A DNA stretch of 64,000 nucleotides from Candidatus Omnitrophota bacterium (lineage in GTDB: Bacteria; Omnitrophota; Gorgyraeia; Zapsychrales; Zapsychraceae), in the NCBI GenBank assembly GCA_021108075.1, contig JAIORP010000178.1, positions 31,811-95,810 of the forward strand, read 5' to 3'. A model generated the notes under the pieces. That model saw only the letters and a list, made by a program, of their open reading frames with translations. It had not been told where the DNA came from and made no database searches. A program made the translations under genes and the position numbers. Each line of letters begins with the position of its first letter. Positions within the stretch are counted from its first letter, which is position 1. This document shows, one piece after another, positions 16,186 to 42,009 of this stretch.

Positions 16186-16189
16186 AATT

Positions 16190-21484: not shown

Positions 21485-21661
21485 AAGCTGACTTTTGTAT
21501 TGGTATAAAAGGGTTCTTTATGCAATGCATTGACATTTGATCAGATTCTAATAGAATATATTAAATCTTATTAAATATAAATTTTTTATATAGTAATTCT
21601 TTTAATAATTATATTAATATACTACAATTTGTATAATTTTTAGCGAAAAAGGAGGCGTGCG

Positions 21662-22390
21662 ATGAGCGAAGATAAGATTTTTGCAGATGATAAAGAAAAA
21701 ATAAATGATTTTGAGTTTGGAGAAGAGACAGCCCAAGTATTTGATGACATGTTGGATCGCAGTGTTCCGCTTTATCGCGAATTACAACGCATGATCGGTG
21801 AAATCGCGAATGAATTTGCCCAATCGGATACGAATATTGTTGATTTGGGGTGTTCAACCGGTATCACGCTTTTAACATTAAATAAAATGGTAGAGAAGAA
21901 TGTGAAGTTGATAGGTGTCGATTATTCACAGGCTATGCTCGATAAATGTAAAAAGAATTTGATAAAGGGTCATGTTAAAAAAGAATATGAATTTTTATGC
22001 CGCGACCTGAATAATGGCTTGGTCATAAAGAATGCATCTGTCGTTGTTTTGAATTTAACCCTTCAATTTATTCGTCCGCTTCAAAGAGATCTGCTGATTC
22101 AACATATTTACAATGGTTTGGTTGATAACGGATGTTTAATTTTAGTTGAGAAAGTCTTGGGGAATGATTCGGTTTTTAATCGGACATTTATTCAATTTTA
22201 TTATGATATGAAACAACGGAATGGTTATTCGGAGTTGGAGATTGCCCAGAAGCGTGAAGCATTGGAAAATGTGCTAATACCGTATCGAATGAGTGAAAAT
22301 GATCAAATGTTGCATCGTAATGGGTTTAGATACATGGATATTTTTTATAAGTGGTACAATTTTTATGGTGTGATAGCAATGAAAATGTAA
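21662..22390 (+). CDS. CmoA-like carboxy-S-adenosyl-L-methionine synthase homolog (class I SAM MTase fold)
   Basis: Near-colinear similarity to E. coli CmoA blocks: FDDMLDRSVPLY, VDLGCSTGITLL, NASVVVLNLTLQFIRP, NGYSELEIAQKREALENVL; 242 aa; strong AAAGGAGG RBS upstream. Confidence 0.65.
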   Translation: MSEDKIFADDKEKINDFEFGEETAQVFDDMLDRSVPLYRELQRMIGEIANEFAQSDTNIVDLGCSTGITLLTLNKMVEKNVKLIGVDYSQAMLDKCKKNLIKGHVKKEYEFLCRDLNNGLVIKNASVVVLNLTLQFIRPLQRDLLIQHIYNGLVDNGCLILVEKVLGNDSVFNRTFIQFYYDMKQRNGYSELEIAQKREALENVLIPYRMSENDQMLHRNGFRYMDIFYKWYNFYGVIAMKM

Positions 22391-22399
22391 AGGAGATTT

Positions 22400-23560
22400 A
22401 TGTTTGTTAACTCTACAAGCCAGAAAGAAGTTGAACAGGACATTGATTCTTTTATAAAAGATCAACACACACAAGGTGATCGAAATCGTTTATCCGCTAA
22501 ATTAAAAGGCGTCAAAATATGTGATACGGATCGCGAAAAGCGACTATTAAAGGTTATTCAGCAGGATCTGCATATATTAGAACGCATTGATGTGTCTGGA
22601 ATTCCCGGGGAATTGGATATTAAGTGGAAAAAATTAACAACAAGCGAACCGAACCGTTTTTTGAATGAGGACCGTTCTCCTAAGGCGGATGTTTTACGTA
22701 ATTTTAGAAAATTATCGATATTCATACCAGATGTGCCAACCTGTGACTTATCCGGGACTAATCCTATTAATATTGTTAGCGGTGGACGTCGAGGTGCGAG
22801 AAAACTCTTGTGTGAAAATTTAGAAATGCTTAAAGATAGGAAATGTCTTGATCTTTTGAAAAAATATCCTGTCAGCCGTATTGGAAACCCGAACGTTTTT
22901 ATTAAAGAAGGGTATGAATACACACATCGATGGACAAAGCATATATACTCATTGAGTTTATTTAAAAAGTATTTGGAGTCAGAATTAACAAATGATTTTG
23001 TTTTATTGGATTTGGGGTCAAGCTATGGGATTTTTTCCTATTTGATTAAGAAAGAGTATCCGAAAACAACACATATTCTGGTAGATTTTCCTGAACAACT
23101 AACGTTGGCCCATTATTTTTTAGGGATGAGTTTCCCTGAAGCAAAAATCGCGACAGTATCCGATCTAAAAGACATAGCTGCTTTGACAAATAACACTATA
23201 TCAGAGTATGATTTCCTTTTAGTCCCATGGTTTTATTATGATAAGTTAAGGTCGATCAAGATTGATGTGTATGCTAATTTTGCTTCTTTGGGAGAAATGC
23301 GGAGGGAATGGTTTGATTTTTATCTGAGTCATCCTGTCTTTAAATCTGCGAAGTGTTTGTTTATGATGAATAGTTTTATGTCAGGACAGGTTTATGATAA
23401 TGATTTAACTTTTTTAGATTATCCTTTTCGTGATTTTGATCAGTTGTATTTAGGGATTTGGCCCTATTCCCACTATACTTATGATAAAAAGCAGTTTTTT
23501 TTCTATGAAAAAGTTTGTTTCGCCTCCCAATATTTTGAATATATCGGCAAGAGAAAATGA
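22400..23560 (+). CDS. Hypothetical protein with methyltransferase-like fold (LDLGSSYGI motif); candidate partner of the CmoA-like enzyme
   Basis: 386 aa; glycine-rich LLDLGSSYGIFSYL then acidic VDFPE; no further recognisable motifs. Confidence 0.4.
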   Translation: MFVNSTSQKEVEQDIDSFIKDQHTQGDRNRLSAKLKGVKICDTDREKRLLKVIQQDLHILERIDVSGIPGELDIKWKKLTTSEPNRFLNEDRSPKADVLRNFRKLSIFIPDVPTCDLSGTNPINIVSGGRRGARKLLCENLEMLKDRKCLDLLKKYPVSRIGNPNVFIKEGYEYTHRWTKHIYSLSLFKKYLESELTNDFVLLDLGSSYGIFSYLIKKEYPKTTHILVDFPEQLTLAHYFLGMSFPEAKIATVSDLKDIAALTNNTISEYDFLLVPWFYYDKLRSIKIDVYANFASLGEMRREWFDFYLSHPVFKSAKCLFMMNSFMSGQVYDNDLTFLDYPFRDFDQLYLGIWPYSHYTYDKKQFFFYEKVCFASQYFEYIGKRK

Positions 23561-24591
23561 ATATGAATAAATCAAAATGTATCATCATCGGTTTCGGCTA
23601 TATGGGGGAAATTCGCGGGCGGGTTATTGATCAGCACGGGCGGCTTGAGCTCATCGGTGTGTGCGAGCCCGACAACGTCAAACGCGAGAAGATCAAGGGT
23701 GTGGCGGCGGTTTCGACCTACCAGGAGGCTTTGGCCTTAAACCCGGATATTGTTTTTGTCTGCGCCCCCAACTGTTTCGCGCCTGAAATAACCATCCAAA
23801 GTTTAAGGCGAGGTGTCCACGTTTTTTGTGAAAAGCCCCCTGGCCGTAATGTGCAGGATGTCCTGGATATGCGGGCGGCAGAACATTCGTCTGTTAAGTT
23901 GATGTTCGGCTTTAATCACCGTTACCATCCCGGGATACTGAAAGCAAAAGCGGTTTTAGAGACCGGCCGCCTGGGCCGGATCATCTCTTTGCGTGGTGTT
24001 TATGGTAAATCAGGCGGTGCTCAATACCATACGTCCTGGCGGAATGATATAAAAATTTCCGGCGGCGGGATATTACTGGACCAGGGTATTCATATGTTAG
24101 ACCTGTTCCGTTTTTTTTGCGATGATTTTGATCAGGTTAAATGTTTTGCCTCAACGTCTTATTGGAAATTCAACGACTTAGAAGATAATGCTTTTGTTAT
24201 TCTGAAAAATAAGCAGGGGCAAACGGCTTCGCTGTATTCCTCCGCGACACTGTGGAAACACACGTTTCAGATCAACATCATTTGTGAAGACGGCTACATG
24301 ACAGTGGAAGGGTTGCTGTCTAAATCCGGCAGTTATGGCCGTGAACGGCTTAAGATAGCCAAACGTCAGTTTGAAGATGAAGCTGCCGCGGTTGGTAATC
24401 CTTCCGAAGAAATCACATATTTTGACCGGGACCAGTCGTGGAATTTAGAAGTTGATGAATTCGTGGATTGCGTTCAAAATAATAAACCTGTTTCGACCAG
24501 TTCCTCTCATGATGCCTTGCGGGTCATGGAAATTGTTGATCAGGCCTATTCCGATGCCGGAATGAGTTTTTCTCAGGAGATAAAGCGATGA
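23557..24591 (+). CDS. Gfo/Idh/MocA-family oxidoreductase
   Basis: IIGFGYMGEIRG Rossmann motif and CEKPP; 344 aa. Confidence 0.7.
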   Translation: MNMNKSKCIIIGFGYMGEIRGRVIDQHGRLELIGVCEPDNVKREKIKGVAAVSTYQEALALNPDIVFVCAPNCFAPEITIQSLRRGVHVFCEKPPGRNVQDVLDMRAAEHSSVKLMFGFNHRYHPGILKAKAVLETGRLGRIISLRGVYGKSGGAQYHTSWRNDIKISGGGILLDQGIHMLDLFRFFCDDFDQVKCFASTSYWKFNDLEDNAFVILKNKQGQTASLYSSATLWKHTFQINIICEDGYMTVEGLLSKSGSYGRERLKIAKRQFEDEAAAVGNPSEEITYFDRDQSWNLEVDEFVDCVQNNKPVSTSSSHDALRVMEIVDQAYSDAGMSFSQEIKR

Positions 24592-25604
24592 AGACAATTG
24601 TGAGCAATGATGACTTTAACGCGGTTGATTTGAAACCATCCGGACTTTTAGCGCGATATATTGACCTGGCTAAAACGGATGTGCGGACATACATTTTAGA
24701 AGGAAACCCATTAAAGCCCTGTCCTTGCCCGGCCTGTCAACGCGATGAGGCCCGGCCGGCCTTTGTTAAGTTGGGGCTTCATTACCAGGAGTGCCTGGCC
24801 TGTGGCACAATTTTTATAGCACCGCGGCCCGGCGATGAGAGCATCGAAAAATTTTACCGGAAATCAGGATCGCGTAAATTTTGGCAGGAACAATTATCTC
24901 AAAGTACAGACCTTAAAAGAAAACAAAAGATTATCAAACCCCGCTGTGAGTGGATGATGGATTCTACCCAGGAGCATTTACCTGAGGCGCGTTGCCTGGC
25001 GGATATTTATATGAACCATACGGGGTATGTTCACGAACTGGAAAGCCTGGCCTGTTTTGAACAGAAATTGTTGGTCAATCCATGGGTGTCGTTTGATAAC
25101 CGTCAAACGCCTGACGGAATAAAGATTGTCCAGGCGCGGGATTGGGAAAAACTTCTCGAGCGTCAAGTTGATGTGCTGGTCTTGTTTGAGGTCTTAGACC
25201 GCGTGGCTGATGTTGAGACATTTATGACGAACGTTCACCGGATATTAAAACCGGGAGGGTTATGCTTTATCACCGCGATCCTTTCCTCCGGGTTTGATAT
25301 TCAGACATTGTGGGATGACGCGAACAATCTCATTCCTCCCGACCGTCTGAACGTGTTTTCGGTGGATGGTCTTTGTTCTTTATTTGACCGGCAGGGATAT
25401 GAATGTTTGGAGTTCAGCACACCGGGGATATTGGATATTGAGCTTGTTAAAGCCGGCCTGAACAAGCAAAAGAAGGTTCATTCACGGTTTGTTAAACAGA
25501 TCATGGAAGCCCGGAATAACACGCGACGGGAATTTCAGCGGTTTTTGCAGGCGAATTTATTAAGTTCTTATGGACGCGTTTTGATACGCAAAAAGGAGCG
25601 GTAG
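24588..25604 (+). CDS. SAM-dependent methyltransferase with N-terminal Cys4 zinc-ribbon (sugar C/O-methyltransferase-like)
   Basis: CPCPACQ ... CLACG zinc-ribbon, then VDVLVLFEVLDRV ... ILKPGG methyltransferase region; 338 aa. Confidence 0.6.
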   Translation: MKTIVSNDDFNAVDLKPSGLLARYIDLAKTDVRTYILEGNPLKPCPCPACQRDEARPAFVKLGLHYQECLACGTIFIAPRPGDESIEKFYRKSGSRKFWQEQLSQSTDLKRKQKIIKPRCEWMMDSTQEHLPEARCLADIYMNHTGYVHELESLACFEQKLLVNPWVSFDNRQTPDGIKIVQARDWEKLLERQVDVLVLFEVLDRVADVETFMTNVHRILKPGGLCFITAILSSGFDIQTLWDDANNLIPPDRLNVFSVDGLCSLFDRQGYECLEFSTPGILDIELVKAGLNKQKKVHSRFVKQIMEARNNTRREFQRFLQANLLSSYGRVLIRKKER

Positions 25605-25607
25605 GAT

Positions 25608-26231
25608 ATGTCTTATGTGAGGCGTTATTTAGAAGAAACCAAAAAAATATCTGAGTTGATCAATCCCCAAGATGTTGAGAACATGATCAACATTCTGTTA
25701 AAGGTCCGTCAAGCTGCGGGGCGCCTGTTCTTTCTTGGTGTTGGCGGGAGCGCTGGTAATTGTTCTCATGCCGTCAACGATTTTCGTAAGATCGGTGGAT
25801 TTGAAGCGTATACTCCGGTTGATAATGTCTCGGAACTAACGGCCCGGACCAATGATGAAGGCTGGGAGACCGTTTTCGCCCAATGGTTAAAGCAGTCACG
25901 GTTAAATGAAAATGATTGTGTTTTTATTTTTTCCGTTGGAGGCGGCAGCAAGGAGAAAAATATCAGCGTGAATTTAGTTTACGCCCTGGATTATGCCAGA
26001 CAGCAATCCGCAAAAGTGATCGGTGTTGTTGGCCGGGATGGCGGGCATACGGGGCAAGTCGCCGATGCCTGTGTGATCATCCCGACGATGTCAGATGACA
26101 CGGTTACCCCGCACGCGGAAGCGTTTCAGGGCGTTGTTTGGCATATGATCGTTTCTGATCCGCGCGTCATGCGGATGACCAACAAATGGGAGTCTGTTGC
26201 CGATCAAAAGACCAGTAAAGAAAATAATTAA
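25608..26231 (+). CDS. SIS-domain sugar-phosphate isomerase (GmhA / sedoheptulose-7-P isomerase-like)
   Basis: LGVGGSAGNCSHAVNDFRK SIS motif; 207 aa. Confidence 0.7.
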   Translation: MSYVRRYLEETKKISELINPQDVENMINILLKVRQAAGRLFFLGVGGSAGNCSHAVNDFRKIGGFEAYTPVDNVSELTARTNDEGWETVFAQWLKQSRLNENDCVFIFSVGGGSKEKNISVNLVYALDYARQQSAKVIGVVGRDGGHTGQVADACVIIPTMSDDTVTPHAEAFQGVVWHMIVSDPRVMRMTNKWESVADQKTSKENN

Positions 26232-26242
26232 AGGAGTACGCG

Positions 26243-26929
26243 ATGGCCATTTTTATAGATTCAGGTAACATTGAAGAAATCAAGACGTATCATTCCATGG
26301 GCATCATCCGCGGAGTGACGACCAATCCGACGATTCTTCTTCAAGACGGCATCAAAGGCGGTATGGCTGAGATCAAGCGGTGTTCGGTTGATCTCGCCAA
26401 ATTGATCCATCCGTATCCTTTGTCCGTTGAAGTCACAACCAATGATCCGCGGAAGATGTTGGAAGAAGCCCTTGAGATGGCGTCCTGGGCGGATAATATC
26501 AACGTAAAATTGACGATCCACGGCCCTGACGGCGAGTTAGACAATTTGACGGTTATCCATGAATTAGAGACGAAACACAATGTCCGTGTAAATGTCACGG
26601 CCATGATGAGCGCGCAGCAATGTTTTGTGGCGGCTTTAGCCGGCGCGACTTACGTCTCGCTTTTTTGCGGGCGGGTGAACAATATGGGTTACAACAGTAT
26701 GGAGGAATTGAGCAAGCTCCGTAACTTGATTGACAGTTTTGATCTAAAGGCTCAGATTATCGCGGCCTCGACCCGTGAGATTTTGAACATTGTTGAGTGG
26801 TTGGACGCCGGCGCCCATATCGTCACGGTTCTGCCCAAATTCATGAACGGGATGATCGTGCACCCGTACACCAAAGAGACGGTCCAACAATTTTTGGATG
26901 ACGCAGCTAAAGGAGAAGGCGCTAAATGA
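26243..26929 (+). CDS. Fructose-6-phosphate aldolase / TalC-type transaldolase family
   Basis: MAIFIDSGNIEEIK ... GVTTNPTIL N-terminus and overall colinearity with E. coli FSA (about 220 aa class); 228 aa. Confidence 0.75.
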   Translation: MAIFIDSGNIEEIKTYHSMGIIRGVTTNPTILLQDGIKGGMAEIKRCSVDLAKLIHPYPLSVEVTTNDPRKMLEEALEMASWADNINVKLTIHGPDGELDNLTVIHELETKHNVRVNVTAMMSAQQCFVAALAGATYVSLFCGRVNNMGYNSMEELSKLRNLIDSFDLKAQIIAASTREILNIVEWLDAGAHIVTVLPKFMNGMIVHPYTKETVQQFLDDAAKGEGAK

Positions 26930-27720
26930 AAAGTATTATTAATCGACGGAAGAAATTAAAGAAAAAGTTTAAGAATAAAGAGAGGGTTTTCGGGGCATGG
27001 ACATCACTCGCCCATTCGGGTATCACAGAAATTTTTTGTCAATCCGGGGTCGACTTTGTCGGTATTGATATCGAGCACAGCACGATCAGTCAAGGCGAAG
27101 CGCGAAGGATTATATCTGCCGCCCAAGCCGGAGGTTCCTTATGTTTACCGCGTATCGCTTCGCATAATATGGAGATGGTCAAACGCCTGTTAGACTCCGG
27201 CGCGGACGGGATTATTGTTCCGATGGTCTCAACAGCGGAAGAGGTCCGGGACATTATCTCCTGGTTGAAATATCCACCGAAAGGTAACCGCAGTTACGGT
27301 ATAGCCCGCGGGCAGGATTATGGATTTGATTTTGAAAATTATACCAGTTCATGGAACGACACCTCGACGTTAATCGTCCAGATCGAGTCGGTTGAAGGCG
27401 TGGAGAACATTGAAGCGATCACGGCCTTTGAAGAGGTCGATGGCATTATGATCGGTCCGTATGACTTATCCGGGTCATTAGGCATCCCCGGTCAACTGAA
27501 TCATCCCAAAGTTCAGGACGCCTGTATCAAGGCCTTACAGATGGCGCATGTGGCCCAGAAATCGTGCGGGACCCAATTGATCGAACCCAACGCGGAGAAT
27601 ATGAAGGCTTCTTTTGATCATGGTTATGACTTTGTGATCTTAGCCTCTGATGTCTTTCTCTTATGGAAGTGGAGCGAGGCGATGAAAGTTTTCATTAAGC
27701 AATTGAGAGGCACGCAGTAA
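26926..27720 (+). CDS. HpcH/HpaI-family (class II, pyruvate-dependent) aldolase
   Basis: GVDFVGIDIEHS and VENIEAI / GPYDL motifs of the HpcH/HpaI-citrate lyase beta fold; 264 aa. Confidence 0.65.
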   Translation: MKSIINRRKKLKKKFKNKERVFGAWTSLAHSGITEIFCQSGVDFVGIDIEHSTISQGEARRIISAAQAGGSLCLPRIASHNMEMVKRLLDSGADGIIVPMVSTAEEVRDIISWLKYPPKGNRSYGIARGQDYGFDFENYTSSWNDTSTLIVQIESVEGVENIEAITAFEEVDGIMIGPYDLSGSLGIPGQLNHPKVQDACIKALQMAHVAQKSCGTQLIEPNAENMKASFDHGYDFVILASDVFLLWKWSEAMKVFIKQLRGTQ

Positions 27721-27722
27721 GC

Positions 27723-28373
27723 ATGGCAACTTTAAGGACGGTTGTTTTGGATTTCGACGGTGTGCTGGTTGAGTCTGTCGGGATAAAAGATCAGGCCTTT
27801 GAAGAAATTTTTTCTGAATTCCCTGAGCATTTTGACCGGATTATGCGGTATCATCTGGCGCGCAACGCGACAATCCGTTATGAAAAGTTTAAACATATTT
27901 GGACGGAAATCCTCGGACGGCCTTATTCCGTTGATGTTGAACAGGAGTTATGCGGTCGATATGAGCGGCGTATCGTTGATAAAATTATTCAATGTCCTGA
28001 GGTTACGGGCGCGTCGGACTTTTTGAGCTTTCTCAGCAAAAAAATGCCTTTGTATATCGTTTCGATGAATCCATTGGAAGAGTTGAGGTCGATATTGCGA
28101 AAGCGGGGTTTTCTCTCCTTTTTTAGAGACGTGTACGCTTTTCCCTGGAAAAAGAAAGACGCTTTAGCGGATATTCTCAAGAAAGAAGGCCTGACGGCAC
28201 AGCAGTGCGTCTTTATCGGTGATACCCCGGAAGACCACATGGCGGCAAAAGAGAACGGCCTGACTTTTATCGGACGGCAATCAAATAGGAAGTTATCCGA
28301 TGATATTCCCGTATTTAAAACCCTGACGGATATTCAAAATTTTTTAGTGGATCAATATAACATTTATGAATAA
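27723..28373 (+). CDS. HAD-superfamily hydrolase (phosphatase, subfamily IA-like)
   Basis: VVLDFDGVLVES motif I and GDTPEDHMAA motif; 216 aa. Confidence 0.7.
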   Translation: MATLRTVVLDFDGVLVESVGIKDQAFEEIFSEFPEHFDRIMRYHLARNATIRYEKFKHIWTEILGRPYSVDVEQELCGRYERRIVDKIIQCPEVTGASDFLSFLSKKMPLYIVSMNPLEELRSILRKRGFLSFFRDVYAFPWKKKDALADILKKEGLTAQQCVFIGDTPEDHMAAKENGLTFIGRQSNRKLSDDIPVFKTLTDIQNFLVDQYNIYE

Positions 28374-28409
28374 AGACATTCTATCAACTCTTTATGATCA
28401 TACCAAATC

Positions 28410-28506
28410 TATTAATAAATTGTTCTATATTAATTTTGATATTCTCGCTAAATCGTCGAGAAAAGCAGAATTGGTGTTGGTCATTATTTAATGGAATTGG
28501 TATAAT
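28410..28506 (+). repeat. Promoter/operator repeat element, copy B (near-consensus), upstream of the 28651 operon
   Basis: Contains the 5' end ATACCAAATCTATTAAT, dyad TTCTCG-N9-CGAGAA (28443..28462), TTGGTC (-35-like), an 18-bp spacer, and TGGTATAAT (28498..28506). Confidence 0.8.
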
Positions 28507-28650
28507 TATATCAGTCAAGACTTGATGATTTTGACCTGCCGGGTTATGGTTTTGGAGATTTGCCTTTGTAGTCGATCCCGATCGCATTTTCCGGGTTAAC
28601 AAAATTGGCGATCAAAGAATAAAACAGATCAACGCGGAAAGGATAATATT

Positions 28651-29433
28651 TTGGAGCAACATTATTTAACAAAATTTTTTAATTTGGAAGGAAAAGTCGC
28701 GGTTGTGATCGGATCGGCCGGTTTTTTATGCAGTGAGATGGCGATAGGTTTAGCCCGGGCCGGTGTCGCGGTCGCTTTGTTAGATAAGAACGAAACGGGT
28801 TTAAGAAAGGTTTTAGCCAGGATTAAGAAACACCGGTCGCGGGCGATTACTTACCGGATGGATGTAACCGATAAAAACGCCCATCAACAGGCGCTTCAGG
28901 CTGTTCTTAAGGAATTCAAGAGAGTGGATATTTTGATTAACGGGGCGGGCATCAATGCTCCGACCCCGGTGATGGATATCGCGTTAGAGGAGTGGCACGC
29001 GATCATTGATTCGCATGTCACGGCGACGCTCTTCGGTTGCCAGGTTTTTGGCGCTCATATGATCAAACGCAAGAAGGGTTCTATTATCAATATGTCCTCA
29101 GCGTCCGCCGGTCCGCCCTTGTCCAGGGCGTTTACCTATTCGGTCGCCAAAGCGGGCATAAGAAACCTGACGCAGAATTTGGGGCGGGAGTGGGCCCCTT
29201 ATAACGTGCGCGTGAATGCCCTGCGCCCCGGGTTCTTCCCGACGGAATGGAGTAAGAAGCATTTTATTGATCCAGGCCGAAATGACGCGATCCTGGGGCA
29301 CACGCCCATGGGCCGTTATGGGAAACCGAAAGAATTGGTCGGTGGAGTGTTGTGGCTGGCTTCTGACGCGGCAAGCTTTGTGACCGGGTCCGAAGTCAGC
29401 ATCGATGGTGGTTTTAGCTGTATGACAATATAA
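28651..29433 (+). CDS. SDR oxidoreductase
   Basis: VIGSAGFLCSE, NGAG, YSVAKAG (YxxxK); 260 aa. TTG start as given by the ORF track; the first operon gene after a promoter-repeat copy. Confidence 0.7.
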   Translation: MEQHYLTKFFNLEGKVAVVIGSAGFLCSEMAIGLARAGVAVALLDKNETGLRKVLARIKKHRSRAITYRMDVTDKNAHQQALQAVLKEFKRVDILINGAGINAPTPVMDIALEEWHAIIDSHVTATLFGCQVFGAHMIKRKKGSIINMSSASAGPPLSRAFTYSVAKAGIRNLTQNLGREWAPYNVRVNALRPGFFPTEWSKKHFIDPGRNDAILGHTPMGRYGKPKELVGGVLWLASDAASFVTGSEVSIDGGFSCMTI

Positions 29434-29459
29434 AATACGGACATAAAAAAAGGTCAACA

Positions 29460-30209
29460 ATGAGCAAAACAGTTATTATTACCGGTGGAACAAAAGGTAT
29501 CGGCGCCGCGATCAGTCAGGTTTTTTATGAAGCGGGGTACCACGTGTTAATCGGCGCCAGGAATAATAACGGCCTGGCGTCCAGACTGGGTGAGCGCGCC
29601 CGTTTTTTGAAAATAGATGTCACGAAAGAACCGGACCACATCCGCCTTGCCAAAACAGCCTTGCGGTGGACAAAACGTTTAGATGTGTATATTAACAATG
29701 CCGGTTTTTCGCAATGGAAGCCCATCCATGAGTTCGACGCTGTGTTCTGGGATAAAATGATGGACACGAATTTAAAGGGCACGATGTGGGGCTGTAAAAC
29801 AGCCGCGGAATATTTATCCACAGGCGGTGTGATTATCAATATTTCGAGTTTGGCCGGTAAAAGGGGCAGCGCGAACAATTCCGCTTATTGCGCTTCTAAA
29901 TTCGGCGTGACCGGTTTAACCCAGGCACTCGCCAAAGAACTTGGCCAACAGGGTGTCCGCGTTAACGCCATTTGCCCTGTTTATGTCGAAACTGAAGGTT
30001 TACTCAGGGCCTTAAGGGACAAACGTTCACCGGCAAAAGGAAAAAGTATTAAGATTTATTTTCAGCGATTTAAAGAATCGCAGTCTGCCTTACAACGATT
30101 ACCCAAAGGAGAAGAGGTGGCCCAAACGTGTTTGTTTTTCGCGTCCGATGCGTCCTCCGCGATTACAGGGCAGTCGTTAAACGTGGATTGCGGGGTTTTG
30201 CCGTCCTGA
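29460..30209 (+). CDS. SDR oxidoreductase
   Basis: ITGGTKGIGAAI, NNAG, YCASKFG; 249 aa. Confidence 0.75.
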   Translation: MSKTVIITGGTKGIGAAISQVFYEAGYHVLIGARNNNGLASRLGERARFLKIDVTKEPDHIRLAKTALRWTKRLDVYINNAGFSQWKPIHEFDAVFWDKMMDTNLKGTMWGCKTAAEYLSTGGVIINISSLAGKRGSANNSAYCASKFGVTGLTQALAKELGQQGVRVNAICPVYVETEGLLRALRDKRSPAKGKSIKIYFQRFKESQSALQRLPKGEEVAQTCLFFASDASSAITGQSLNVDCGVLPS

Positions 30210-30241
30210 TGCAAGCCATCTGAATTCAAAGAAAGGTTTAT

Positions 30242-31021
30242 ATGCAGAAACAATTTCGAACAGTGGCTGTTATCCCGGCGCGGATGGGGGCGTCCCGGTT
30301 TCCGGGTAAACCACTTGTAAAAATATTAGATTTACCCATGATTGAACATGTGCGCCGGCGGGTTTCCTTGTGTTCCTGTATCGACGAGGTCTATGTCGCG
30401 ACATGTGATGAGGAGATCAAGCGGGCGGTTGAACGTTACGGCGGAAAAGCGATTATGACGGCGGACACCCATGAACGCTGCACGGACCGGGTTGAAGAAG
30501 CGATTCAGGATATCGACTGCGATATTGTCTTTATTTTTCAAGGAGACGAACCGCTGTTTGATTTGTCGGTCGCGGATAAATTGCTGCGGCCTTTTATCGA
30601 TCATTCCCAGACTCTTTGCAGCAATCTTATATCAACGATCAAGAACGAAGATGATTTACGCGACATGAATATTGTTAAAGCTGTCTTAGACCGGCGGCAA
30701 CGCGTCCTTTGTTTTTCACGGGCCGCGCTTCCGTATAAACGCGTCGGCACAGCCTGCCCCTTGTACCGCCAGACGGGTTTGTCAGCCTTTAAGCGGGATT
30801 TTTTGGTCCAGTTCTCGAATTTGGCACCGACTCCTTTAGAAATGAGGGAATCCATTGATTTTATGCGTATCCTGGAGCATGGCTTTGCTATTCAGGGTGT
30901 GGTCTTTGAACAAGAGCTTTTTGGAGTTGATGAGCCGCGGCATATCGCCATCATAGAAAAAATTTTACAGGAAAATCCAACACAAAAAGCTATCTACGAG
31001 GAGATTCGTGTCCATGTCTAA
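30242..31021 (+). CDS. KdsB-like CMP-ulosonic-acid cytidylyltransferase (CMP-Kdo synthetase family)
   Basis: VAVIPARMGASRFPGKPL N-terminal motif diagnostic for the KdsB / NeuA cytidylyltransferase fold; 259 aa. Confidence 0.75.
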   Translation: MQKQFRTVAVIPARMGASRFPGKPLVKILDLPMIEHVRRRVSLCSCIDEVYVATCDEEIKRAVERYGGKAIMTADTHERCTDRVEEAIQDIDCDIVFIFQGDEPLFDLSVADKLLRPFIDHSQTLCSNLISTIKNEDDLRDMNIVKAVLDRRQRVLCFSRAALPYKRVGTACPLYRQTGLSAFKRDFLVQFSNLAPTPLEMRESIDFMRILEHGFAIQGVVFEQELFGVDEPRHIAIIEKILQENPTQKAIYEEIRVHV

Positions 31022-31934
31022 AAAAATTTTTGTGGCATTAACGACCTTTGCCCAATACGGTCAAGAACCCGTTGAACGACTGGAAAAAAGCGGGTTTGAT
31101 TTTACGGTCAACAAACTCGGCCGGCGCCTGGTCAAAGAGGAAGTGATCCAGTACGGTCAGGGATGTCAGGGCATTATTGCCGGAGTGGAACCCTATGACG
31201 CGGATGTGATCGATCAAATTCCGTCTTTGGAATGCATCAGCCGGGTTGGTGTCGGGTTGGATAATATTGACTTACGCAAAGCGAAAGAAAAGGGCCTCAT
31301 CATCTGCAACACACCGGATGTGGTGATCCAGCCGGTCGCGGAGATGGCGGTCGCGATGATGTTTGATATGCTGCGGCGGTTATCTTTTCACACCTTAAAA
31401 ATGTGTTCGAAACAATGGGTCAAAAAAGCCGGAAATATGCTGTGCGGTAAAACAGTGGGGATTTTGGGCCTGGGCCGGATCGGCCGAAGGGTCGCGGAAA
31501 TGATGCGAAAACTTGATTTGGAAGTTCGCGGGTATGATGTTCATCCCGATCAGGACTGGGCTAAAAAGAATGGCGTATCTTTAGTTGGATTAGACGACGT
31601 GTTGTCAACGGCCGATATTCTCAGCCTGCACCTGGCCAGTGATAAGGACCATCCTTTTGTGTTGGGCTCAGCAGAGATATCAAAGATGAAAGACGGGGCG
31701 ATGCTCATCAATTTAGCGCGTGGCCAATTTGTTGATGAACAGGCCTTATATGACGCGCTTAAAGAAGAGAAGCTGGCGGGCGCGGCGCTTGATGTGTATT
31801 CACGTGAACCGTATGACGGCCCTTTATGCGGGTTGGATTCGGTGATCTTAACCCCGCATGTGGCCACATTAACGAAAGAATCGCGGCTGCAGATGGAAGT
31901 CGAAGCGACCGGGAACTTGATGAAAAACTTATAA
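31008..31934 (+). CDS. D-isomer-specific 2-hydroxyacid dehydrogenase (NAD-binding)
   Basis: GILGLGRIGRRVA NAD motif and catalytic R ... E ... H layout; 308 aa. Confidence 0.75.
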   Translation: MSMSKKIFVALTTFAQYGQEPVERLEKSGFDFTVNKLGRRLVKEEVIQYGQGCQGIIAGVEPYDADVIDQIPSLECISRVGVGLDNIDLRKAKEKGLIICNTPDVVIQPVAEMAVAMMFDMLRRLSFHTLKMCSKQWVKKAGNMLCGKTVGILGLGRIGRRVAEMMRKLDLEVRGYDVHPDQDWAKKNGVSLVGLDDVLSTADILSLHLASDKDHPFVLGSAEISKMKDGAMLINLARGQFVDEQALYDALKEEKLAGAALDVYSREPYDGPLCGLDSVILTPHVATLTKESRLQMEVEATGNLMKNL

Positions 31935-32030
31935 TAAATATGTTCAAACTTATCATTGAATAGTGATGTTGCTATTTGATCAGCGTTGGTATTTTAAAAG
32001 GTTAATCAGTGATATTGAGGCATGAAGTTT

Positions 32031-32064
32031 CCCCCTTATCTTGCTGCGGGGTGCGGGGTTCATT
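32031..32064. repeat. GC-rich hairpin motif (CCCCNTANCTTGCTGCGGGGTGCNGGGTTCATT family), copy 1, at the left boundary of the defense island
   Basis: CCCCCTTATCTTGCTGCGGGGTGCGGGGTTCATT is near-identical to 49353..49385. Confidence 0.7.
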
Positions 32065-32296
32065 CAAATCAATTCATGCACCGTTTTTATTCTGACAAGA
32101 GAAAGAAAAGAATAGTTGTCGTGCCACGCAAATGTGTGGTATAAAAGAGTTATCCCCTACACATAGTAATTCCCCGAATCACGTTTATTTAAACTTCAAA
32201 TCATTGTCCCGCATTAGAGAGGGAAAATTTGGACGTTAAAAAAGTAAAACCTTTGCTGGTAAATTATGGCGGGGTTTCTTTCATTTATATATAAGA

Positions 32297-33670
32297 ATGG
32301 GATTTAAAGCGAACAATAACAAAGGGGGCTTTCGTATGGAAAATGTTAATAATATTGATATAATACAAATTAAGAAGGGTACAACATCAGAACAATTAGA
32401 TAGCGATGAACAAATGAAAAAAGAAAAAAAGGATTTAAAGGTCTTATCATTATTCTCAGGTTGCGGCGGTTTAGATTTAGGATTTGAGGGTGATTTTTCA
32501 GTTTTAAAAAACTGTTTAAATAAAAGCGTTCATCCCGAATGGTTTAATGGTGGAAATAATTCTCAGTGGGTGAAAGTTCCTAAAACAAAATTTAAGGTTG
32601 TCTTCGCTAATGATATTATGCCTGCCGCTCGATCTTCATGGTTACCTTATTTCCAAAGTAAAGGAAATAGTGTGATTTTTCATACGGAAAGCATAGTCGA
32701 ACTTGTTAAAAAACATAAAAAAGGTAAAAAGATTTTTCCAAAGGTTGACGTGGTGACTGGTGGGTTCCCCTGTCAGGATTTCAGCGTCGCTGGAAAACGG
32801 AAAGGTTTTAATTCTCATAAAGGACATCATGGGGATCTTTTAACCTCAAAAGATAAGCCTACAGAAGAAAACAGAGGTAAGTTATACATGTGGATGAGGC
32901 ATGTTATCGATATAGTGCGCCCTAAAATGTTTATCGCTGAAAATGTCAAAGGTTTGGTTACTTTAGCGGACGCTAAAGTAATTATAGAAAATGATTTTCG
33001 TTCGATAGGTGAAGGTGGGTACGTGGTTGTTAGCGCTAAAGTGTTGTCCGCCGCTGATTATGGTGTTTCACAACGACGGGAACGCGTTCTTTTCATTGGT
33101 TTTAGAAAAGACACGTTGAAGAAGAAAGCTCTTCAGGCTTTTTCGAACGGGATTATACCTGAAGAGTTTGACCCATATCCAAGACCCACGCATGGCACGT
33201 CAAGAAACAATTGCGTTAGACCTTATGTTACCGTTAAACAAGCTTTGGTGGGTTTATATGAACCTGAAAGATCTTCTGATCTAGCGCAAAAATCTTTTTC
33301 AAGAGCGAAATGGTATGGCAGACATTGCCAAGGGCAAAATGAAGTCAATTTAAATGGCTTGGGGCCAACTATTCGTTCTGAACATCACGGAAACATTGAG
33401 TTTAGACGATTATCTCCAGATAATGGAGGTAAATACCTTGATGAAATTAAAAAGGGCATGAAAGAAAGAAGGTTAACTGTAAGGGAGTGCGCCAGATTAC
33501 AAACTTTTCCTGATGATTACGCGTTTGTTAGAAATTCTTCCACGAATGGAAATGGCTATAATCTCAGCGCTTCTGAGGGTTATAAATTAATTGGCAATGC
33601 GGTGCCTCCACTACTTGGTTTCCATTTGGCTTGGCGGTTGCAAGAAATATGGTCGGACGTTTTTAAATGA
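32297..33670 (+). CDS. DNA (cytosine-5)-methyltransferase, restriction-modification type
   Basis: Motif I LFSGCGGLDLGFE, motif IV GGFPCQDFSVAG, motif VI ENVKGL, motif VIII QRRERV, motif X GNAVPP; 457 aa. More likely start at 32336 (MENVNN). Confidence 0.85.
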   Translation: MGFKANNNKGGFRMENVNNIDIIQIKKGTTSEQLDSDEQMKKEKKDLKVLSLFSGCGGLDLGFEGDFSVLKNCLNKSVHPEWFNGGNNSQWVKVPKTKFKVVFANDIMPAARSSWLPYFQSKGNSVIFHTESIVELVKKHKKGKKIFPKVDVVTGGFPCQDFSVAGKRKGFNSHKGHHGDLLTSKDKPTEENRGKLYMWMRHVIDIVRPKMFIAENVKGLVTLADAKVIIENDFRSIGEGGYVVVSAKVLSAADYGVSQRRERVLFIGFRKDTLKKKALQAFSNGIIPEEFDPYPRPTHGTSRNNCVRPYVTVKQALVGLYEPERSSDLAQKSFSRAKWYGRHCQGQNEVNLNGLGPTIRSEHHGNIEFRRLSPDNGGKYLDEIKKGMKERRLTVRECARLQTFPDDYAFVRNSSTNGNGYNLSASEGYKLIGNAVPPLLGFHLAWRLQEIWSDVFK

Positions 33671-34797
33671 TACTATCTTCCAAGCGTGAAACGAAAAACA
33701 AACAATTTGAAGAACTGCTATCTTCCAGCCAACAGATTTTAGAAAAGAAAAATAAGTCTCACCCACCTTATTTCTCCAAGCGAACACCAACGGAATTTGA
33801 GAAGGATGTGCATGCCGCCATGGAGAAAGCCTCTATTGGCACGCCTTTTGAAGGCACTATTCAGTTAGTTTCTGGCCACCGTTTCCCAGATATTATTGAC
33901 GATGGATATTACGGTGTCGAAGTCAAAACCACTAAGACTAATTGGAAGAGTACGGGTAATAGCGTTTTAGAATCCACGAGAGTGGATAAAATTGAAAGAA
34001 TTTATTTGTTTTTCGGGCGTCTTTCTGACGCGGTCGCTTTCAAATTTCGAAGGTACGAAGAATGTTTGCATGAGGTTGCGGTAACGCATTCCCCCAGATA
34101 TTTAATTGACATGAATTTAGACGCTGGTAAAAGCATATTTGATAAAATGAAAATATCTTATGACGAGTTAAGAAAATTAGATAAACCAATAAAGCCTTTT
34201 GTTCAATATTATCGTTCAATCGCTCAATCGGGTGAAGAGCCATGGTGGATGGAAGGCGCTGATGATGAGGAAGAAACACTCGTGAAGCCCACGGTGTCTT
34301 TATGGAATAGTCTTCCCGTTGATGAGCAAGAAACCATGCGCAATCAAGCGATGGCCTTATTCCCGGAAGTGTTTAGTAATCGTTCCACGAAATACCATAA
34401 TCTTTCTTTATGGTTAGCGACCAGAAAAGGCGTTGTGGATTCATCACTAAGAGATAGGTTCACGGCTGGTGGACGAGAAACGCTTATAGTTAATGGTAAA
34501 AAATATAAAGATGTTCCAAAAATATTTTATCATTTAAAAGGAAATTTAGATAAAGTCGTTAAGCTCGTTAAAAAATTAGATCCTGAAGAAGCGAAATATT
34601 TTTGGAAAGTGGATCAAAACTTAGGTTCTTACACACTCCTGCCAACCTGGCTTGATTTAGTTGTTGGCTACGCGGAGAAGAACCTTGGGAGTAAAGGGAA
34701 GTTTATTGTGCATCTGATAGGTGATTATGCTGGTGAAAAGAACTCCTCACTATTTCTAAAAGAGGAAATGGCGAAATATGGATTAGATTATTCTTAA
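33667..34797 (+). CDS. Putative type II restriction endonuclease (PD-(D/E)XK candidate) cognate to the C5-MTase
   Basis: 376 aa ORF placed between the MTase and vsr with a 4-bp overlap; contains FPDIIDDGYYGVEVKT, which fits a PD-x(n)-ExK nuclease core. Confidence 0.45.
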   Translation: MILSSKRETKNKQFEELLSSSQQILEKKNKSHPPYFSKRTPTEFEKDVHAAMEKASIGTPFEGTIQLVSGHRFPDIIDDGYYGVEVKTTKTNWKSTGNSVLESTRVDKIERIYLFFGRLSDAVAFKFRRYEECLHEVAVTHSPRYLIDMNLDAGKSIFDKMKISYDELRKLDKPIKPFVQYYRSIAQSGEEPWWMEGADDEEETLVKPTVSLWNSLPVDEQETMRNQAMALFPEVFSNRSTKYHNLSLWLATRKGVVDSSLRDRFTAGGRETLIVNGKKYKDVPKIFYHLKGNLDKVVKLVKKLDPEEAKYFWKVDQNLGSYTLLPTWLDLVVGYAEKNLGSKGKFIVHLIGDYAGEKNSSLFLKEEMAKYGLDYS

Positions 34798-34798
34798 T

Positions 34799-35263
34799 AT
34801 GAAAAGAAAAATTAAAAATAAGTTGGGGAGAAATTTTAATCGTGAACGGCAAAAAGATAAGATTACGACTGATAAACGTTCCTCTGTGATGTCAAAAATA
34901 CGATCACGGGGAACAAAGTTTGAGACGGATTTCATAGACGAACTTTCGAGAATGGTAAAAGAAAAATTTGAAACGCACGTTAAGGATATTAGGGGTAAAC
35001 CAGACATTGTGTTCCGCGGTAAAAAGGTTTGTGTTTTTTTGGACAGCAACTTCTGGCACGGTTGGCAGTATCCTCGTTGGAAGCATTTATTAAAGAATGA
35101 TTTTTGGCGAAATAAGATAGAAAAAAATAGACTACGAGATCGAAATACAACCCAGTATTTACGACGTGAGGGATGGGCGGTTATTAGGATTTGGGAACAC
35201 TCCATAAAGAATGATATAGGGGTAGCCTTGAGGAGAATAATGGATGGAGTTGCCAATGGGTAA
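34799..35263 (+). CDS. vsr: Very short patch repair endonuclease
   Basis: RGKPDIVFRGKKVCVFLDSNFWHGW and C-terminal GWAVIRIWEH match the Vsr signature (DxxFWHG ... W.VLR.WE); 154 aa. Confidence 0.85.
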   Translation: MKRKIKNKLGRNFNRERQKDKITTDKRSSVMSKIRSRGTKFETDFIDELSRMVKEKFETHVKDIRGKPDIVFRGKKVCVFLDSNFWHGWQYPRWKHLLKNDFWRNKIEKNRLRDRNTTQYLRREGWAVIRIWEHSIKNDIGVALRRIMDGVANG

Positions 35264-35416
35264 AGAAATTAATATAGATAGTTGATTATTGTAATTGGGC
35301 GATATTCCGTGAATGGGAAACTCAAGACATAAGATCTTATGAATTAATCAGGAAGGCTGTTAAGAGTGAATATAATATTTTTCGGAGTGGCGAGACTTTT
35401 TATTATTGATTATAAA

Positions 35417-35455
35417 TGATGACCGCCCTGACTACTCTTTCGAGAGAGCCTTCTG
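35417..35455. repeat. 39-bp direct repeat, left copy (TGATGACCGCCCTGACTACTCTTTCGAGAGAGCCTTCTG) flanking the TIR-NTPase gene
   Basis: Identical 39-mer found again at 38185..38223; read directly from the sequence. Confidence 0.9.
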
Positions 35456-35543
35456 TCAAAATAAAAGATGTCAGGTATTATATGTTGTTATTCCTGGATT
35501 TATTATTCATTATTTCAGGTGAGAAATTATAAAGGAGAAAACA

Positions 35544-38171: not shown

Positions 38172-38184
38172 AATTCAGAATAAC

Positions 38185-38223
38185 TGATGACCGCCCTGAC
38201 TACTCTTTCGAGAGAGCCTTCTG
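38185..38223. repeat. 39-bp direct repeat, right copy, followed by an inverted-repeat stem (CCGCCCTG ... CAGGGCGG) and a T-run
   Basis: Identical to 35417..35455. The downstream GGGCTCTTATTATCAGGGCGGAACCTTTTTT can pair with the CCGCCCTGA inside the repeat. Confidence 0.9.
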
Positions 38224-42000: not shown

Positions 42001-42009
42001 CAGGAAGCC

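Follow-up and report, generated by a model that had tools for sequence, protein, structure and literature searches.

Which sugar could be built by a gene cluster that pairs a KdsB-like CMP-transferase with a pyruvate aldolase? The question arises from a window of 64,000 nucleotides, the whole stretch analysed here, from a Candidatus Omnitrophota genome, in which a sequence-only reading had placed eight genes of a non-canonical sugar-building module at 25608–31934. All eight open reading frames lie on the plus strand where that reading put them, and Pfam upholds each of the eight domain calls. On the strength of their sequences we give a probability of roughly 0.6 to the proposal that these genes and two further members make a tailored 3-deoxy-2-ulosonic acid, activated with CMP and destined for a surface polysaccharide.

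Extent and distribution of the cassette

The module as first drawn was two genes short: the conserved unit comprises ten genes and extends from 23557 to 31934, with a Gfo/Idh/MocA oxidoreductase and a methyltransferase upstream of the other eight. We compared 44 loci from other genomes, each with enough flanking DNA around a close homologue of the cassette HpcH aldolase. The complete set occurs in identical order in 24 of them, and individual genes are present in 34–42 of the 44, a degree of clustering that far exceeds chance. The loci span at least 12 phyla, with carriers in Omnitrophota, Planctomycetota, Chloroflexota, Thermodesulfobacteriota, Elusimicrobiota, Bdellovibrionota, SAR324, Alpha- and Gammaproteobacteria, Acidobacteriota, Actinomycetota, Patescibacteria, and one archaeal MAG. 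They usually sit in polysaccharide loci, among flippases, glycosyltransferases, a Wzy-like protein, and an initiating transferase. The view of these genes as one conserved module is supported. Because a minimal variant (L028), reduced to the Gfo/Idh/MocA, methyltransferase, isomerase, aldolase, phosphatase, cytidylyltransferase, and 2-hydroxyacid dehydrogenase genes, retains the isomerase, aldolase, phosphatase, and cytidylyltransferase, we regard these four as the core. Pfam domain assignment places no KdsA or NeuB gene among the cassette genes, and among ∼66 related loci just 3 have a NeuB homologue at a distance of up to ∼10 kb, in agreement with the earlier suggestion of a route that does not depend on PEP.

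Directly upstream in the window lies a Leg-type cluster (7172–19683; LegB, LegC, LegH, NeuB, LegG, PtmE, PtmF, LegF, and PtmA homologues). The operon continues downstream on the plus strand with a Methyltransf_23 methyltransferase (38539–39459), a hexapeptide acyltransferase (39463–40044), and a divergent GT-B protein of 606 aa (40041–41861), the last probably a candidate transferase for the cassette product.

The gap between the phosphatase gene and the first of two short-chain dehydrogenase (SDR) genes holds a 107-nt palindromic repeat (28397–28503), which had been taken for a promoter/operator repeat opening the second half of the module. The repeat is real, with further full copies at 7018–7124, 49107–49186, and 54825–54931 (four in total) and two partial inverted copies (41975–42014 and 46680–46719), and a sigma-70-like site, TGGTCA-17-TATAAT, is found at 28478–28506. 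It is, however, an intergenic element that folds, at −37.2 kcal/mol (z −6.4), into a long hairpin, had no Rfam match, and is genome-specific, lying outside the conserved cassette; in other genomes the same gap is empty or holds an FkbM methyltransferase gene.

Core enzymes and precursor supply

The predicted C–C bond-forming “synthase” is the class II (metal-dependent) pyruvate aldolase of the HpcH/HpaI family (26926–27720, plus strand; Pfam HpcH_HpaI, E 4.9e-33), which we propose for this role from its sequence. None of its catalytic residues (H51, R76, E154, D180) varies among 66 homologues, which supports this part of the sequence-only reading. The catalytic His, Arg, Glu, and Asp and the fold family are shared with YfaU/RhmA, GarL, and HpaI, which are catabolic and only ∼30–35% identical to it, whereas the cassette aldolases form a tight separate group (52–70% identity across phyla) with its own conserved loop at 113–144, in which Arg122 and Arg128 are invariant or nearly so. 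Outgroup HpcH proteins reach 28–39% identity (38–39% in two loci, ≤32% in the others), and their loci lack the cassette, except one of those at 38–39% (L073), which retains most of it. The aldolase gene directly precedes that of an HAD-IA phosphatase (27723–28373, plus strand; Pfam HAD_2/Hydrolase) in 38 of 44 loci; the phosphatase keeps the DxDG motif as DFDGV.

The isomerase (25608–26231, plus strand; Pfam SIS_2) had been likened to a sedoheptulose-7-phosphate isomerase, and this likeness stands: the protein is a GmhA-like sugar-phosphate aldose-ketose isomerase, encoded in 41 of 44 loci, whose family profile matches Campylobacter jejuni GmhA (1tk9, E 1.1e-14). H54, D58, E171, and H179 align with the Zn/catalytic positions of GmhA and are invariant in 56 homologues. 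Like GmhA it has a single SIS_2 domain, ND and GGS motifs, and metal/catalytic positions conserved in kind (His, acid, Glu or Gln, His), but it differs in two of these (Glu to Asp, Gln to Glu) and in an insertion in the phosphate loop. Its score against TIGR00441 (gmhA; E 3e-13) is 50 bits against a cut-off of 209, which makes the likeness a distant one; the substrate could be Ru5P or F6P instead. Unlike in the ADP/GDP-heptose pathways, its gene is followed by neither a heptose kinase nor a nucleotidyltransferase.

The gene at 26243–26929 (plus strand; Pfam TAL_FSA, E 2.6e-36) had been read as an FSA/TalC-like, dihydroxyacetone-utilising aldolase, an assignment that its residues overturn. The catalytic pair is Glu and Phe in transaldolases, and Gln and Tyr in FSA. 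Here the pair is Glu63 and Phe141; D6, E63, K89, T119, and R144 are conserved among homologues, and position 141 is Phe in 42 of 51, Leu in 9, and Tyr in none. FSA identity is therefore ruled out in favour of a short (subfamily-5) transaldolase, consistent with its best solved matches, the Bacillus subtilis and Thermoplasma acidophilum transaldolases. The gene is present in 34 loci and absent from 10 of 44, the member most often lost. Its product is probably only a booster of precursor supply and, given these residues and this frequent absence, not a second C–C bond-forming “synthase”. The same absence weakens the argument for sedoheptulose 7-phosphate as the precursor.

Proposed pathway and competing readings

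We infer the chemistry from protein families, conserved residues, and synteny. The GmhA-like enzyme would convert a central ketose phosphate, most plausibly sedoheptulose 7-phosphate, to the matching aldose phosphate (heptose 7-phosphate), while the transaldolase would replenish the ketose phosphate pool. The aldolase would then condense pyruvate with the aldehyde to a 3-deoxy-2-ulosonate bearing a terminal phosphate, which the HAD enzyme would strip off, drawing the reversible aldol step forward, and the KdsB-like enzyme would couple the free acid to CMP. All four oxidoreductases (Gfo/Idh/MocA, two SDRs, and a PGDH-like dehydrogenase) may edit hydroxyl or keto groups by epimerisation or oxidation, the cassette methyltransferase may methylate the sugar, and the nearby GT-B protein would probably transfer it. 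Active sites are intact in the aldolase, the isomerase, the transaldolase (D6/E63/K89/F141), and the phosphatase (DxD). From an aldose, a pyruvate aldolase makes a 4-hydroxy-2-oxo acid, that is, a 3-deoxy-2-ulosonic acid, and to our knowledge such acids are the sole substrate class of KdsB/NeuA-type enzymes. A heptose-type precursor joined to pyruvate, the first option of the sequence-only reading, is also the most likely one here, and our guess for chain length ranks C10 (heptose-derived) first, ahead of C9 (hexose-derived, Kdn-like) and C8 (Kdo-like). Several points count against the proposal: pyruvate aldolases are reversible and mostly catabolic, some variant loci lack the HAD gene, and four oxidoreductases exceed the needs of simple tailoring, among them a PGDH-like enzyme that is always coupled to the cytidylyltransferase gene and fits no clear step.

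The same framework might instead lead to known Kdo or Kdn, perhaps O-methylated, from arabinose 5-phosphate or mannose 6-phosphate, with non-orthologous enzymes as the only novelty; we consider this possible, though improbable. The KdsB-like CTP:ulosonate cytidylyltransferase (30242–31021, plus strand; Pfam CTP_transf_3, E 7.5e-36), confirmed as the unit's own copy, bears directly on this reading. It scores 258.8 bits against the KdsB subfamily NF009905 (NCBIfam), barely above the cut-off of 255, and its family profile matches Escherichia coli KpsU (1gq9) at 235 bits and NeuA-type chains at <50 bits, placing it in the KdsB branch as a true homologue of KdsB/KpsU. Moreover, SIS-fold enzymes also isomerise Ru5P/A5P and F6P/M6P, and the Kdo (KdsD-KdsA-KdsC-KdsB) and Kdn pathways follow the same four-step logic of ketose phosphate to aldose phosphate, C3 addition to a 3-deoxy-2-ulosonate phosphate, dephosphorylation, and CMP activation. 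However, while the CTP and Mg motifs are retained (PARxxSSRxPGKP, QGDEP, GVD), the C-terminal domain, the Kdo-binding part of KdsB, has altered motifs that are conserved as such (ATDD to ATCD, SGTDR to RCTDR, HxGxYAYR to QTGxSAF, LEQLR to (V/I)DFLR), which suggests a sugar related to, yet different from, Kdo. In addition, the isomerase groups with GmhA rather than KdsD or PGI/PMI, transaldolase cannot supply Ru5P, and neither Kdo nor Kdn requires four oxidoreductases and a methyltransferase. A longer-chain product would have room, as KdsB accepts a C8 extension that points into an open cavity (PMC9535733).

The tailoring genes all lie on the plus strand. The Gfo/Idh/MocA gene (23557–24591; GFO_IDH_MocA and C3 domains) overlaps the gene upstream by 4 nt, occurs in 42 of 44 loci, always directly followed by the methyltransferase gene, and probably encodes a ring-hydroxyl dehydrogenase or ketoreductase, its nearest solved structures being inositol 2-dehydrogenase, DgpA, and YjhC. 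The SAM methyltransferase (24588–25604, 338 aa; 39 of 44 loci) carries Methyltransf_23 in its C-terminal half; Pfam assigned no family to the N-terminal ∼170 aa, and no solved relative was found at E ≤ 0.01. SDR 1 (28651–29433; adh_short) scores 245 bits against NF006132, below the cut-off of 281, and is closest to the sugar-acid dehydrogenases D-mannonate oxidoreductase, gluconate 5-dehydrogenase, and KduD, whose site of action is the penultimate carbon, whereas SDR 2 (29460–30209; adh_short) is a generic classical SDR; both occur in 37 of 44 loci, SDR 1 always ahead. The D-2-hydroxyacid dehydrogenase (31008–31934; 2-Hacid_dh(_C); 37 of 44 loci) overlaps the end of the cytidylyltransferase gene, which always immediately precedes it, and is closest to short 3-phosphoglycerate dehydrogenases (TIGR01327, E 6.5e-65; the ten best solved matches are all PGDHs).

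This consistent PGDH affinity allows a reading in which the aldolase uses hydroxypyruvate and gives a 3-hydroxy (Ko-like) rather than a 3-deoxy 2-ulosonic acid, with phosphohydroxypyruvate formed from 3-phosphoglycerate by oxidation on the PGDH-like enzyme and then dephosphorylated by the HAD enzyme. Two otherwise unexplained genes would gain roles. Some HpcH-family members take hydroxypyruvate as donor, and enzymes named hydroxyketoacid aldolases are among the solved structures of the family (6r62). Nevertheless, the sugar-phosphate product would be left without a dedicated phosphatase, and the dehydrogenase gene is coupled to that of the cytidylyltransferase rather than to those of the aldolase and the HAD enzyme; we judge this reading unlikely. 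It is also quite unlikely that the aldolase, 2-hydroxyacid dehydrogenase, and methyltransferase turn pyruvate plus a small aldehyde into a hydroxy- or methoxy-polyhydroxy acyl group to decorate the legionaminic-type nonulosonic acid of the upstream cluster, with no new backbone sugar. That cluster is complete, and other bacteria are reported to make nonulosonic acids acylated in this way, but NeuB is rarely nearby in related loci, and the cassette has its own KdsB-like enzyme and sugar-phosphate isomerase and lacks an acyl-activating enzyme or N-acyltransferase. Very improbable is a Dha-like 3-deoxy-heptulosaric acid, for which transaldolase-derived erythrose 4-phosphate would be epimerised via the ketose by the SIS enzyme, converted by the aldolase to 3-deoxy-heptulosonate 7-phosphate, dephosphorylated, and oxidised at C7: the nearest characterised HpcH enzymes (GarL and HpaI) use dicarboxylic 2-keto-3-deoxy acids, several dehydrogenases are on hand, and the 2-hydroxyacid dehydrogenase would suit the distal alpha-hydroxy-acid end, but the transaldolase gene is the one most readily lost while the isomerase is core, the cassette has no aldehyde dehydrogenase, and we know of no GmhA-type enzyme acting on tetrose phosphates.

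Relation to known ulosonic acid pathways

Compared with the Kdo pathway, the cassette would replace the PEP-dependent KdsA (DAHP_synth_1) with the HpcH aldolase, uses a GmhA-like (SIS_2) isomerase rather than KdsD and an HAD-IA rather than a KdsC-type phosphatase, both of them distant or non-orthologous counterparts, and has five tailoring genes as fixed members. With Kdn and nonulosonic acid pathways it would share the end product, an alpha-keto acid sugar that is activated with CMP and used in surface glycans, and with Kdn also the condensation of a phosphorylated aldose that is dephosphorylated afterwards (by Kdn-9-phosphate phosphatase), but it lacks a NeuB/SAF-domain synthase, aminotransferase, and acetyltransferase, and its cytidylyltransferase is not of the NeuA branch (NeuA/LegF/PseF).

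Bacterial CMP-activated ulosonic acids of more than nine carbons do exist: the accessible part of the SugarBase preprint describes C10 compounds in Magnetospirillum gryphiswaldense, to which that part assigns no gene cluster (10.64898/2026.04.20.719630). As described there, they bear two N-acetyl groups, whereas the cassette has no aminotransferase. We found no published description of the cassette in the literature. It looks like an undescribed route to an acidic surface sugar, in which a pyruvate aldolase replaces the PEP-dependent synthase, and we propose that it is self-contained and has spread horizontally.

Extent and conservation of the cassette

The window holds one long run of + strand genes. 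All eight open reading frames listed in the sequence-only reading are present on that strand, and Pfam upheld every domain call: SIS_2 (25608-26231), TAL_FSA (26243-26929), HpcH_HpaI (26926-27720; E 4.9e-33), HAD (27723-28373), two classical SDRs (SDR 1, 28651-29433; SDR 2, 29460-30209), CTP_transf_3 (30242-31021; E 7.5e-36), and a D-2-hydroxyacid dehydrogenase (31008-31934). The module boundary had been placed at 25608, which makes it too short: because the same ten-gene set and order are conserved in other genomes, the unit starts at 23557 and includes a Gfo/Idh/MocA oxidoreductase (23557-24591) and a 338-aa methyltransferase (24588-25604). Genes abut tightly or overlap throughout, except that 277 nt separate SDR 1 from the HAD gene.

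The HpcH aldolase has thousands of relatives, the closest among the matches listed being 59-70% identical. The neighbourhoods of three distant relatives show an identical gene set in identical order (Gfo/Idh/MocA oxidoreductase, methyltransferase, SIS isomerase, transaldolase, HpcH aldolase, HAD phosphatase, two SDRs, cytidylyltransferase, and 2-hydroxyacid dehydrogenase). Scanning one genome per species gave 80 loci, in which genes were mapped by tblastn with the window proteins; presence counts were restricted to the 44 loci with enough flanking DNA. All ten genes occur in identical order in 24 of these 44. The oxidoreductase is present in 42, the SIS isomerase in 41, the methyltransferase in 39, the HAD phosphatase in 38, and SDR 1, SDR 2, the cytidylyltransferase, and the 2-hydroxyacid dehydrogenase in 37 each. 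The transaldolase gene (34/44) is the one most often absent, and its role is therefore probably precursor supply.

Carriers span Omnitrophota, Planctomycetota, Chloroflexota, Thermodesulfobacteriota, Elusimicrobiota, Bdellovibrionota, SAR324, Acidobacteriota (Aminicenantes), and Actinomycetota, together with one Patescibacteria MAG and one Methanomicrobiaceae MAG, whose binning we take as given. Proteobacterial carriers are Kiloniella laminariae, Magnetovibrio, and Halopseudomonas aestusnigri, and at least one carrier, K. laminariae G21630-S1, is cultured. Where identity of the HpcH protein falls to 28-39% (L075-L087), the cassette is lacking, except at one locus (L073) that keeps most of it. 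E. coli genomes gave no match at the DNA level, and a search of viral contigs found no relatives of the aldolase.

The most reduced locus (L028) retains only the oxidoreductase, methyltransferase, SIS, HpcH, HAD, cytidylyltransferase, and 2-hydroxyacid dehydrogenase genes. Expanded loci carry an FkbM-type methyltransferase gene between HAD and SDR 1, and some of them gain extra methyltransferases, glycosyltransferases, a hexapeptide acyltransferase, or a fusion protein with a PEP mutase; the predicted product is therefore a sugar to which additional methyl or acyl groups are often attached. In L074 (4898-6592 of that locus) the fusion joins a PEP mutase to a nucleotidyltransferase and is encoded between the oxidoreductase and isomerase genes, which suggests that phosphonate decorates the same glycan.

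A palindromic intergenic repeat of ~107 nt lies upstream of SDR 1 (28397-28503), with further copies at 7018-7124, 49107-49186, and 54825-54931 and partial inverted copies at 41975-42014 and 46680-46719. All six copies lie between genes, close upstream of one on the + strand. The copy at 28397-28503 folds as a long hairpin (−37.2 kcal/mol, z −6.4), and a sigma-70-like site, TGGTCA-17-TATAAT, a good match, falls at 28478-28506 within the repeat region; Rfam gave no match in window positions 19000-39000. The promoter/operator repeat proposed for the second half of the module is real and may carry a promoter, but it behaves like a REP or MITE element; other genomes have no copy of it at this point. 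The family may represent mobile promoter cassettes or REP-like elements.

Catalytic residues and substrate pockets

The assignment of the HpcH/HpaI protein as a class II pyruvate aldolase holds: the TIM-barrel family domain is present, as are the catalytic His, the Arg, and two acidic metal ligands, with His51, Arg76, Glu154, and Asp180 invariant across 66 homologues. Its solved relatives are YfaU, HpaI, and GarL. The loop at residues 113-144 is clade-specific, and within it Arg122 and Arg128 are invariant or near-invariant.

The second aldolase had been labelled an FSA-type, dihydroxyacetone-utilising enzyme. E. coli FSA carries Gln59 and Tyr131, and the TacTal transaldolase carries Glu60 and Phe132. 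Of 51 homologues of the cassette protein, 50 carry Glu63, and residue 141 is Phe in 42, Leu in 9, and Tyr in none; among solved structures, the transaldolases of B. subtilis and Thermoplasma come closest to it. Because the discriminating residues are of the transaldolase kind, the FSA label is unsupported.

The SIS protein is distantly GmhA-like. It scored 50.1 bits against TIGR00441 (cut-off 209), short of equivalog level, and a profile of 17 homologues retrieved only GmhA structures (E 1e-14 to 1e-6, best 1.1e-14) and, more weakly, DiaA. The SIS_2 fold does retain a conserved catalytic and metal tetrad, His54, Asp58, Glu171, and His179, which aligns with the Zn and catalytic positions of GmhA and is invariant in 56 homologues; the corresponding E. 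coli GmhA residues are presumably His61, Glu65, Gln172, and His180. The HAD protein has the DxDG phosphatase motif.

The call of a KdsB-like CMP-transferase is likewise borne out as a predicted activity, since the N-terminal CTP motif (PARxxSxRxPGKP) and the Mg-binding Asp of QGDEP and GVD are kept in alignment with E. coli KpsU (1gq9). The protein lies just above the KdsB subfamily model NF009905 (258.8 vs 255 bits), and a profile of 18 homologues scored 235 bits against KpsU and <50 bits against NeuA-type enzymes. Four motifs conserved in solved KdsBs are changed in these 18 cassette homologues (ATDD to ATCD, SGT(D/E)R to RCTDR, HxGxYAYR to QTGxSAF, and LEQLR to (V/I)DFLR), and the replacements are equally conserved. 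The cassette cytidylyltransferases thus lack the motifs used to diagnose Kdo specificity (HxGxYAYR, LEQLR, and SGT(D/E)R), which we take to be Kdo-contacting in KdsB; the argument about the substrate pocket rests partly on that assumption. A search of the open literature for the Kdo-contacting residues of KdsB returned only domain-level statements. The C-terminal domain of KdsB is its Kdo-binding domain (PMC3149649), and the enzyme tolerates C8 substituents, the C8 end pointing into an open cavity (PMC9535733).

Among the remaining enzymes, SDR 1 is nearest in NCBIfam to D-mannonate oxidoreductase, gluconate 5-dehydrogenase, and KduD, and the Gfo/Idh/MocA enzyme resembles ring-hydroxyl dehydrogenases (inositol dehydrogenase, DgpA, and YjhC). 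The ten best solved matches of the 2-hydroxyacid dehydrogenase are all 3-phosphoglycerate dehydrogenases (PGDHs); the PGDH model is also its nearest NCBIfam family, though it scores only 220 bits against a cut-off of 454. No solved relatives of the methyltransferase were found. Four oxidoreductases (SDR 1, SDR 2, the Gfo/Idh/MocA enzyme, and the 2-hydroxyacid dehydrogenase) probably act on positions of the sugar, either epimerising or oxidising them; in a comparable case, an SDR and reductase pair makes the 8-epimer from pseudaminic acid (PMC12053666).

The surrounding glycan locus

The cassette is located in a surface-polysaccharide locus. Upstream (7172-19683) lies a complete legionaminic-acid-type cluster (LegB, LegC, LegH, NeuB, LegG, amidotransferase-like genes, PtmE, PtmF, LegF, and PtmA). 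Downstream are methyl- and acyltransferases, glycosyltransferases, a Wzy-like protein, a WecG-type transferase, an initiating sugar-phosphate transferase, and a Wzy_C protein, followed by housekeeping genes. Flippases and glycosyltransferases also flank the cassette in other genomes.

A third sugar-modifying group occupies 421-5126 and comprises a CTP_transf_3 cytidylyltransferase, a methyltransferase, a xylose-isomerase-like TIM barrel, a Gfo/Idh/MocA enzyme, an SDR, and a KdsC-like HAD protein, with an ABC exporter (5138-6958) after it. With the CTP_transf_3 gene of this group, the window therefore encodes three CMP-sugar-type cytidylyltransferases. Four window proteins of 606 aa were considered as paralogues and rejected, as they belong to four different families: an ABC transporter (5138-6958), PF27878 (19658-21484), a GT-B-like protein that is the candidate transferase for the product (40041-41861), and a solute-binding protein (57919-59736).

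Two radical SAM enzymes, one B12-binding and one SPASM/NirJ-like, are encoded within the glycan locus (12074-13462 and 42010-43122), and B12-radical SAM genes repeatedly adjoin the cassette elsewhere (L006, L036). Their proximity suggests C-methylation or other radical tailoring of sugars. A CmoA (carboxy-SAM synthase) equivalog is encoded at 21662-22390 (251.6 bits against TIGR00740, cut-off 193.3), flanked by a PF27878 'PFTS_polysacc' protein and a NanM-like putative sugar O-methyltransferase (19658-23560). Two unrelated metagenomic loci (L090, 10001-13622; L091, 8001-13249) likewise have a CmoA-like gene beside NeuB, with genes for a PF27878 protein and for a ~345-aa protein outside any Pfam family coming next. 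CmoA in glycan loci may serve sugar carboxymethylation using carboxy-SAM, although we know of no such glycan modification.

A low-GC block (32297-38171; 0.31-0.39 vs 0.45-0.48 on both flanks) separates the 2-hydroxyacid dehydrogenase gene from a methyltransferase gene that adjoins it in other genomes. It encodes a type II restriction-modification system (m5C methylase, restriction enzyme, and Vsr nicking endonuclease) and a TIR-domain protein matching PADLOC PDC-S60/ThsB, and is a defence island that landed inside the glycan operon. A 51-nt direct repeat, 92% identical, lies on either side of the TIR-STAND gene (35405-35455 and 38173-38223) and may have arisen by duplication of an insertion target or represent a shared terminator. 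A GC-rich 38-nt intergenic repeat (CCCC.TA.CTTGCTGCGGGGTGC.GGGTTCATT) occurs at 32032-32069 and 49353-49390, and one copy lies at the left edge of the island insertion.

Proposed pathway, product, and significance

The observation is real and stronger than first reported, and the reading given to it is right in outline, though unproven. When a pyruvate aldolase uses an aldose as acceptor, the product is a 3-deoxy-2-ulosonic acid, which belongs to the class of substrates that KdsB-type enzymes take. The four core genes would mirror the logic of Kdo and Kdn synthesis: isomerase, C3-adding enzyme, phosphatase, and cytidylyltransferase. We propose that the acceptor is phosphorylated, which would be why the cassette carries a sugar-phosphate isomerase, a transaldolase, and a phosphatase; the phosphatase step would make the reversible aldol reaction effectively irreversible. 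No PEP-dependent KdsA- or NeuB-type synthase domain occurs among the ten genes. We put the probability of the general mechanism, CMP-ulosonic acid synthesis with a non-orthologous pyruvate-dependent synthase, at roughly 0.6.

Sedoheptulose 7-phosphate (S7P) is favoured as the starting ketose because the isomerase groups only with GmhA and because transaldolase can raise S7P or F6P, not Ru5P; this is the weakest link in the argument. Starting from S7P, the product would be a C10 acid, which we regard as a tentative assignment. The alternatives are a C9 acid from F6P, within reach of the transaldolase, or a C8 acid from Ru5P, outside it. It is possible, if doubtful, that the product is an undescribed non-amino ulosonic acid of at least 10 carbons (a 'homo-Kdn' from heptose phosphate and pyruvate) that is then methylated and epimerised. 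Hydroxypyruvate in place of pyruvate as aldol donor would give the PGDH-like enzyme a role. We downgrade the idea that the cassette decorates the upstream legionaminic acid, because a NeuB homologue lies within ~10 kb of the cassette in only 3 of ~66 loci; the cassette is therefore unlikely to be an accessory of a nonulosonic acid pathway. The window's NeuB (9898-10896) is part of the separate legionaminic-acid-type cluster.

To our knowledge, PEP-dependent synthases make all those CMP-activated acidic sugars whose pathway has been assigned (Kdo, Kdn, and the sialic, legionaminic, and pseudaminic acids), a rule that a widespread pyruvate-aldolase pathway, if true, would break. Full-text literature searches turned up no description of the gene set, and no NCBIfam model is specific to any cassette protein. 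The one near match is a preprint on Leptospira serovar Hardjo, which places an HpcH-type aldolase, a phosphoheptose isomerase, and KdsB, uninterpreted, in one LPS-associated locus ('sru'), a likeness by annotation only. A 2026 preprint (10.64898/2026.04.20.719630) describes as yet unassigned C10 CMP-ulosonic acids from Magnetospirillum, so such acids do exist on that account, though those are N-acetylated. What is new here, judged from sequence, is a predicted pyruvate-dependent non-orthologous synthase within a known type of biosynthesis, and the sugar itself has a fair chance of being new too.

Because NeuB and KdsA are the markers used in genome screens for 'sialic-acid-like' sugars, such screens would overlook the cassette pathway entirely. 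If true, the proposal would explain what thousands of proteins annotated as 'aldolase/citrate lyase' or 'KdsB' do, and the HpcH aldolase would be a possible biocatalyst for long-chain keto-deoxy sugars; the cultured Kiloniella laminariae carrier (L019) makes the proposal directly testable. Should the heptose-derived product prove correct, this would be the first CMP-sugar pathway with a backbone formed by a class II pyruvate aldolase, and its product a sugar commonly found on the surface of Omnitrophota, Planctomycetota, and some ten further phyla. The cassette suggests that mostly uncultured lineages, whose envelopes are unstudied, carry a new surface sugar.
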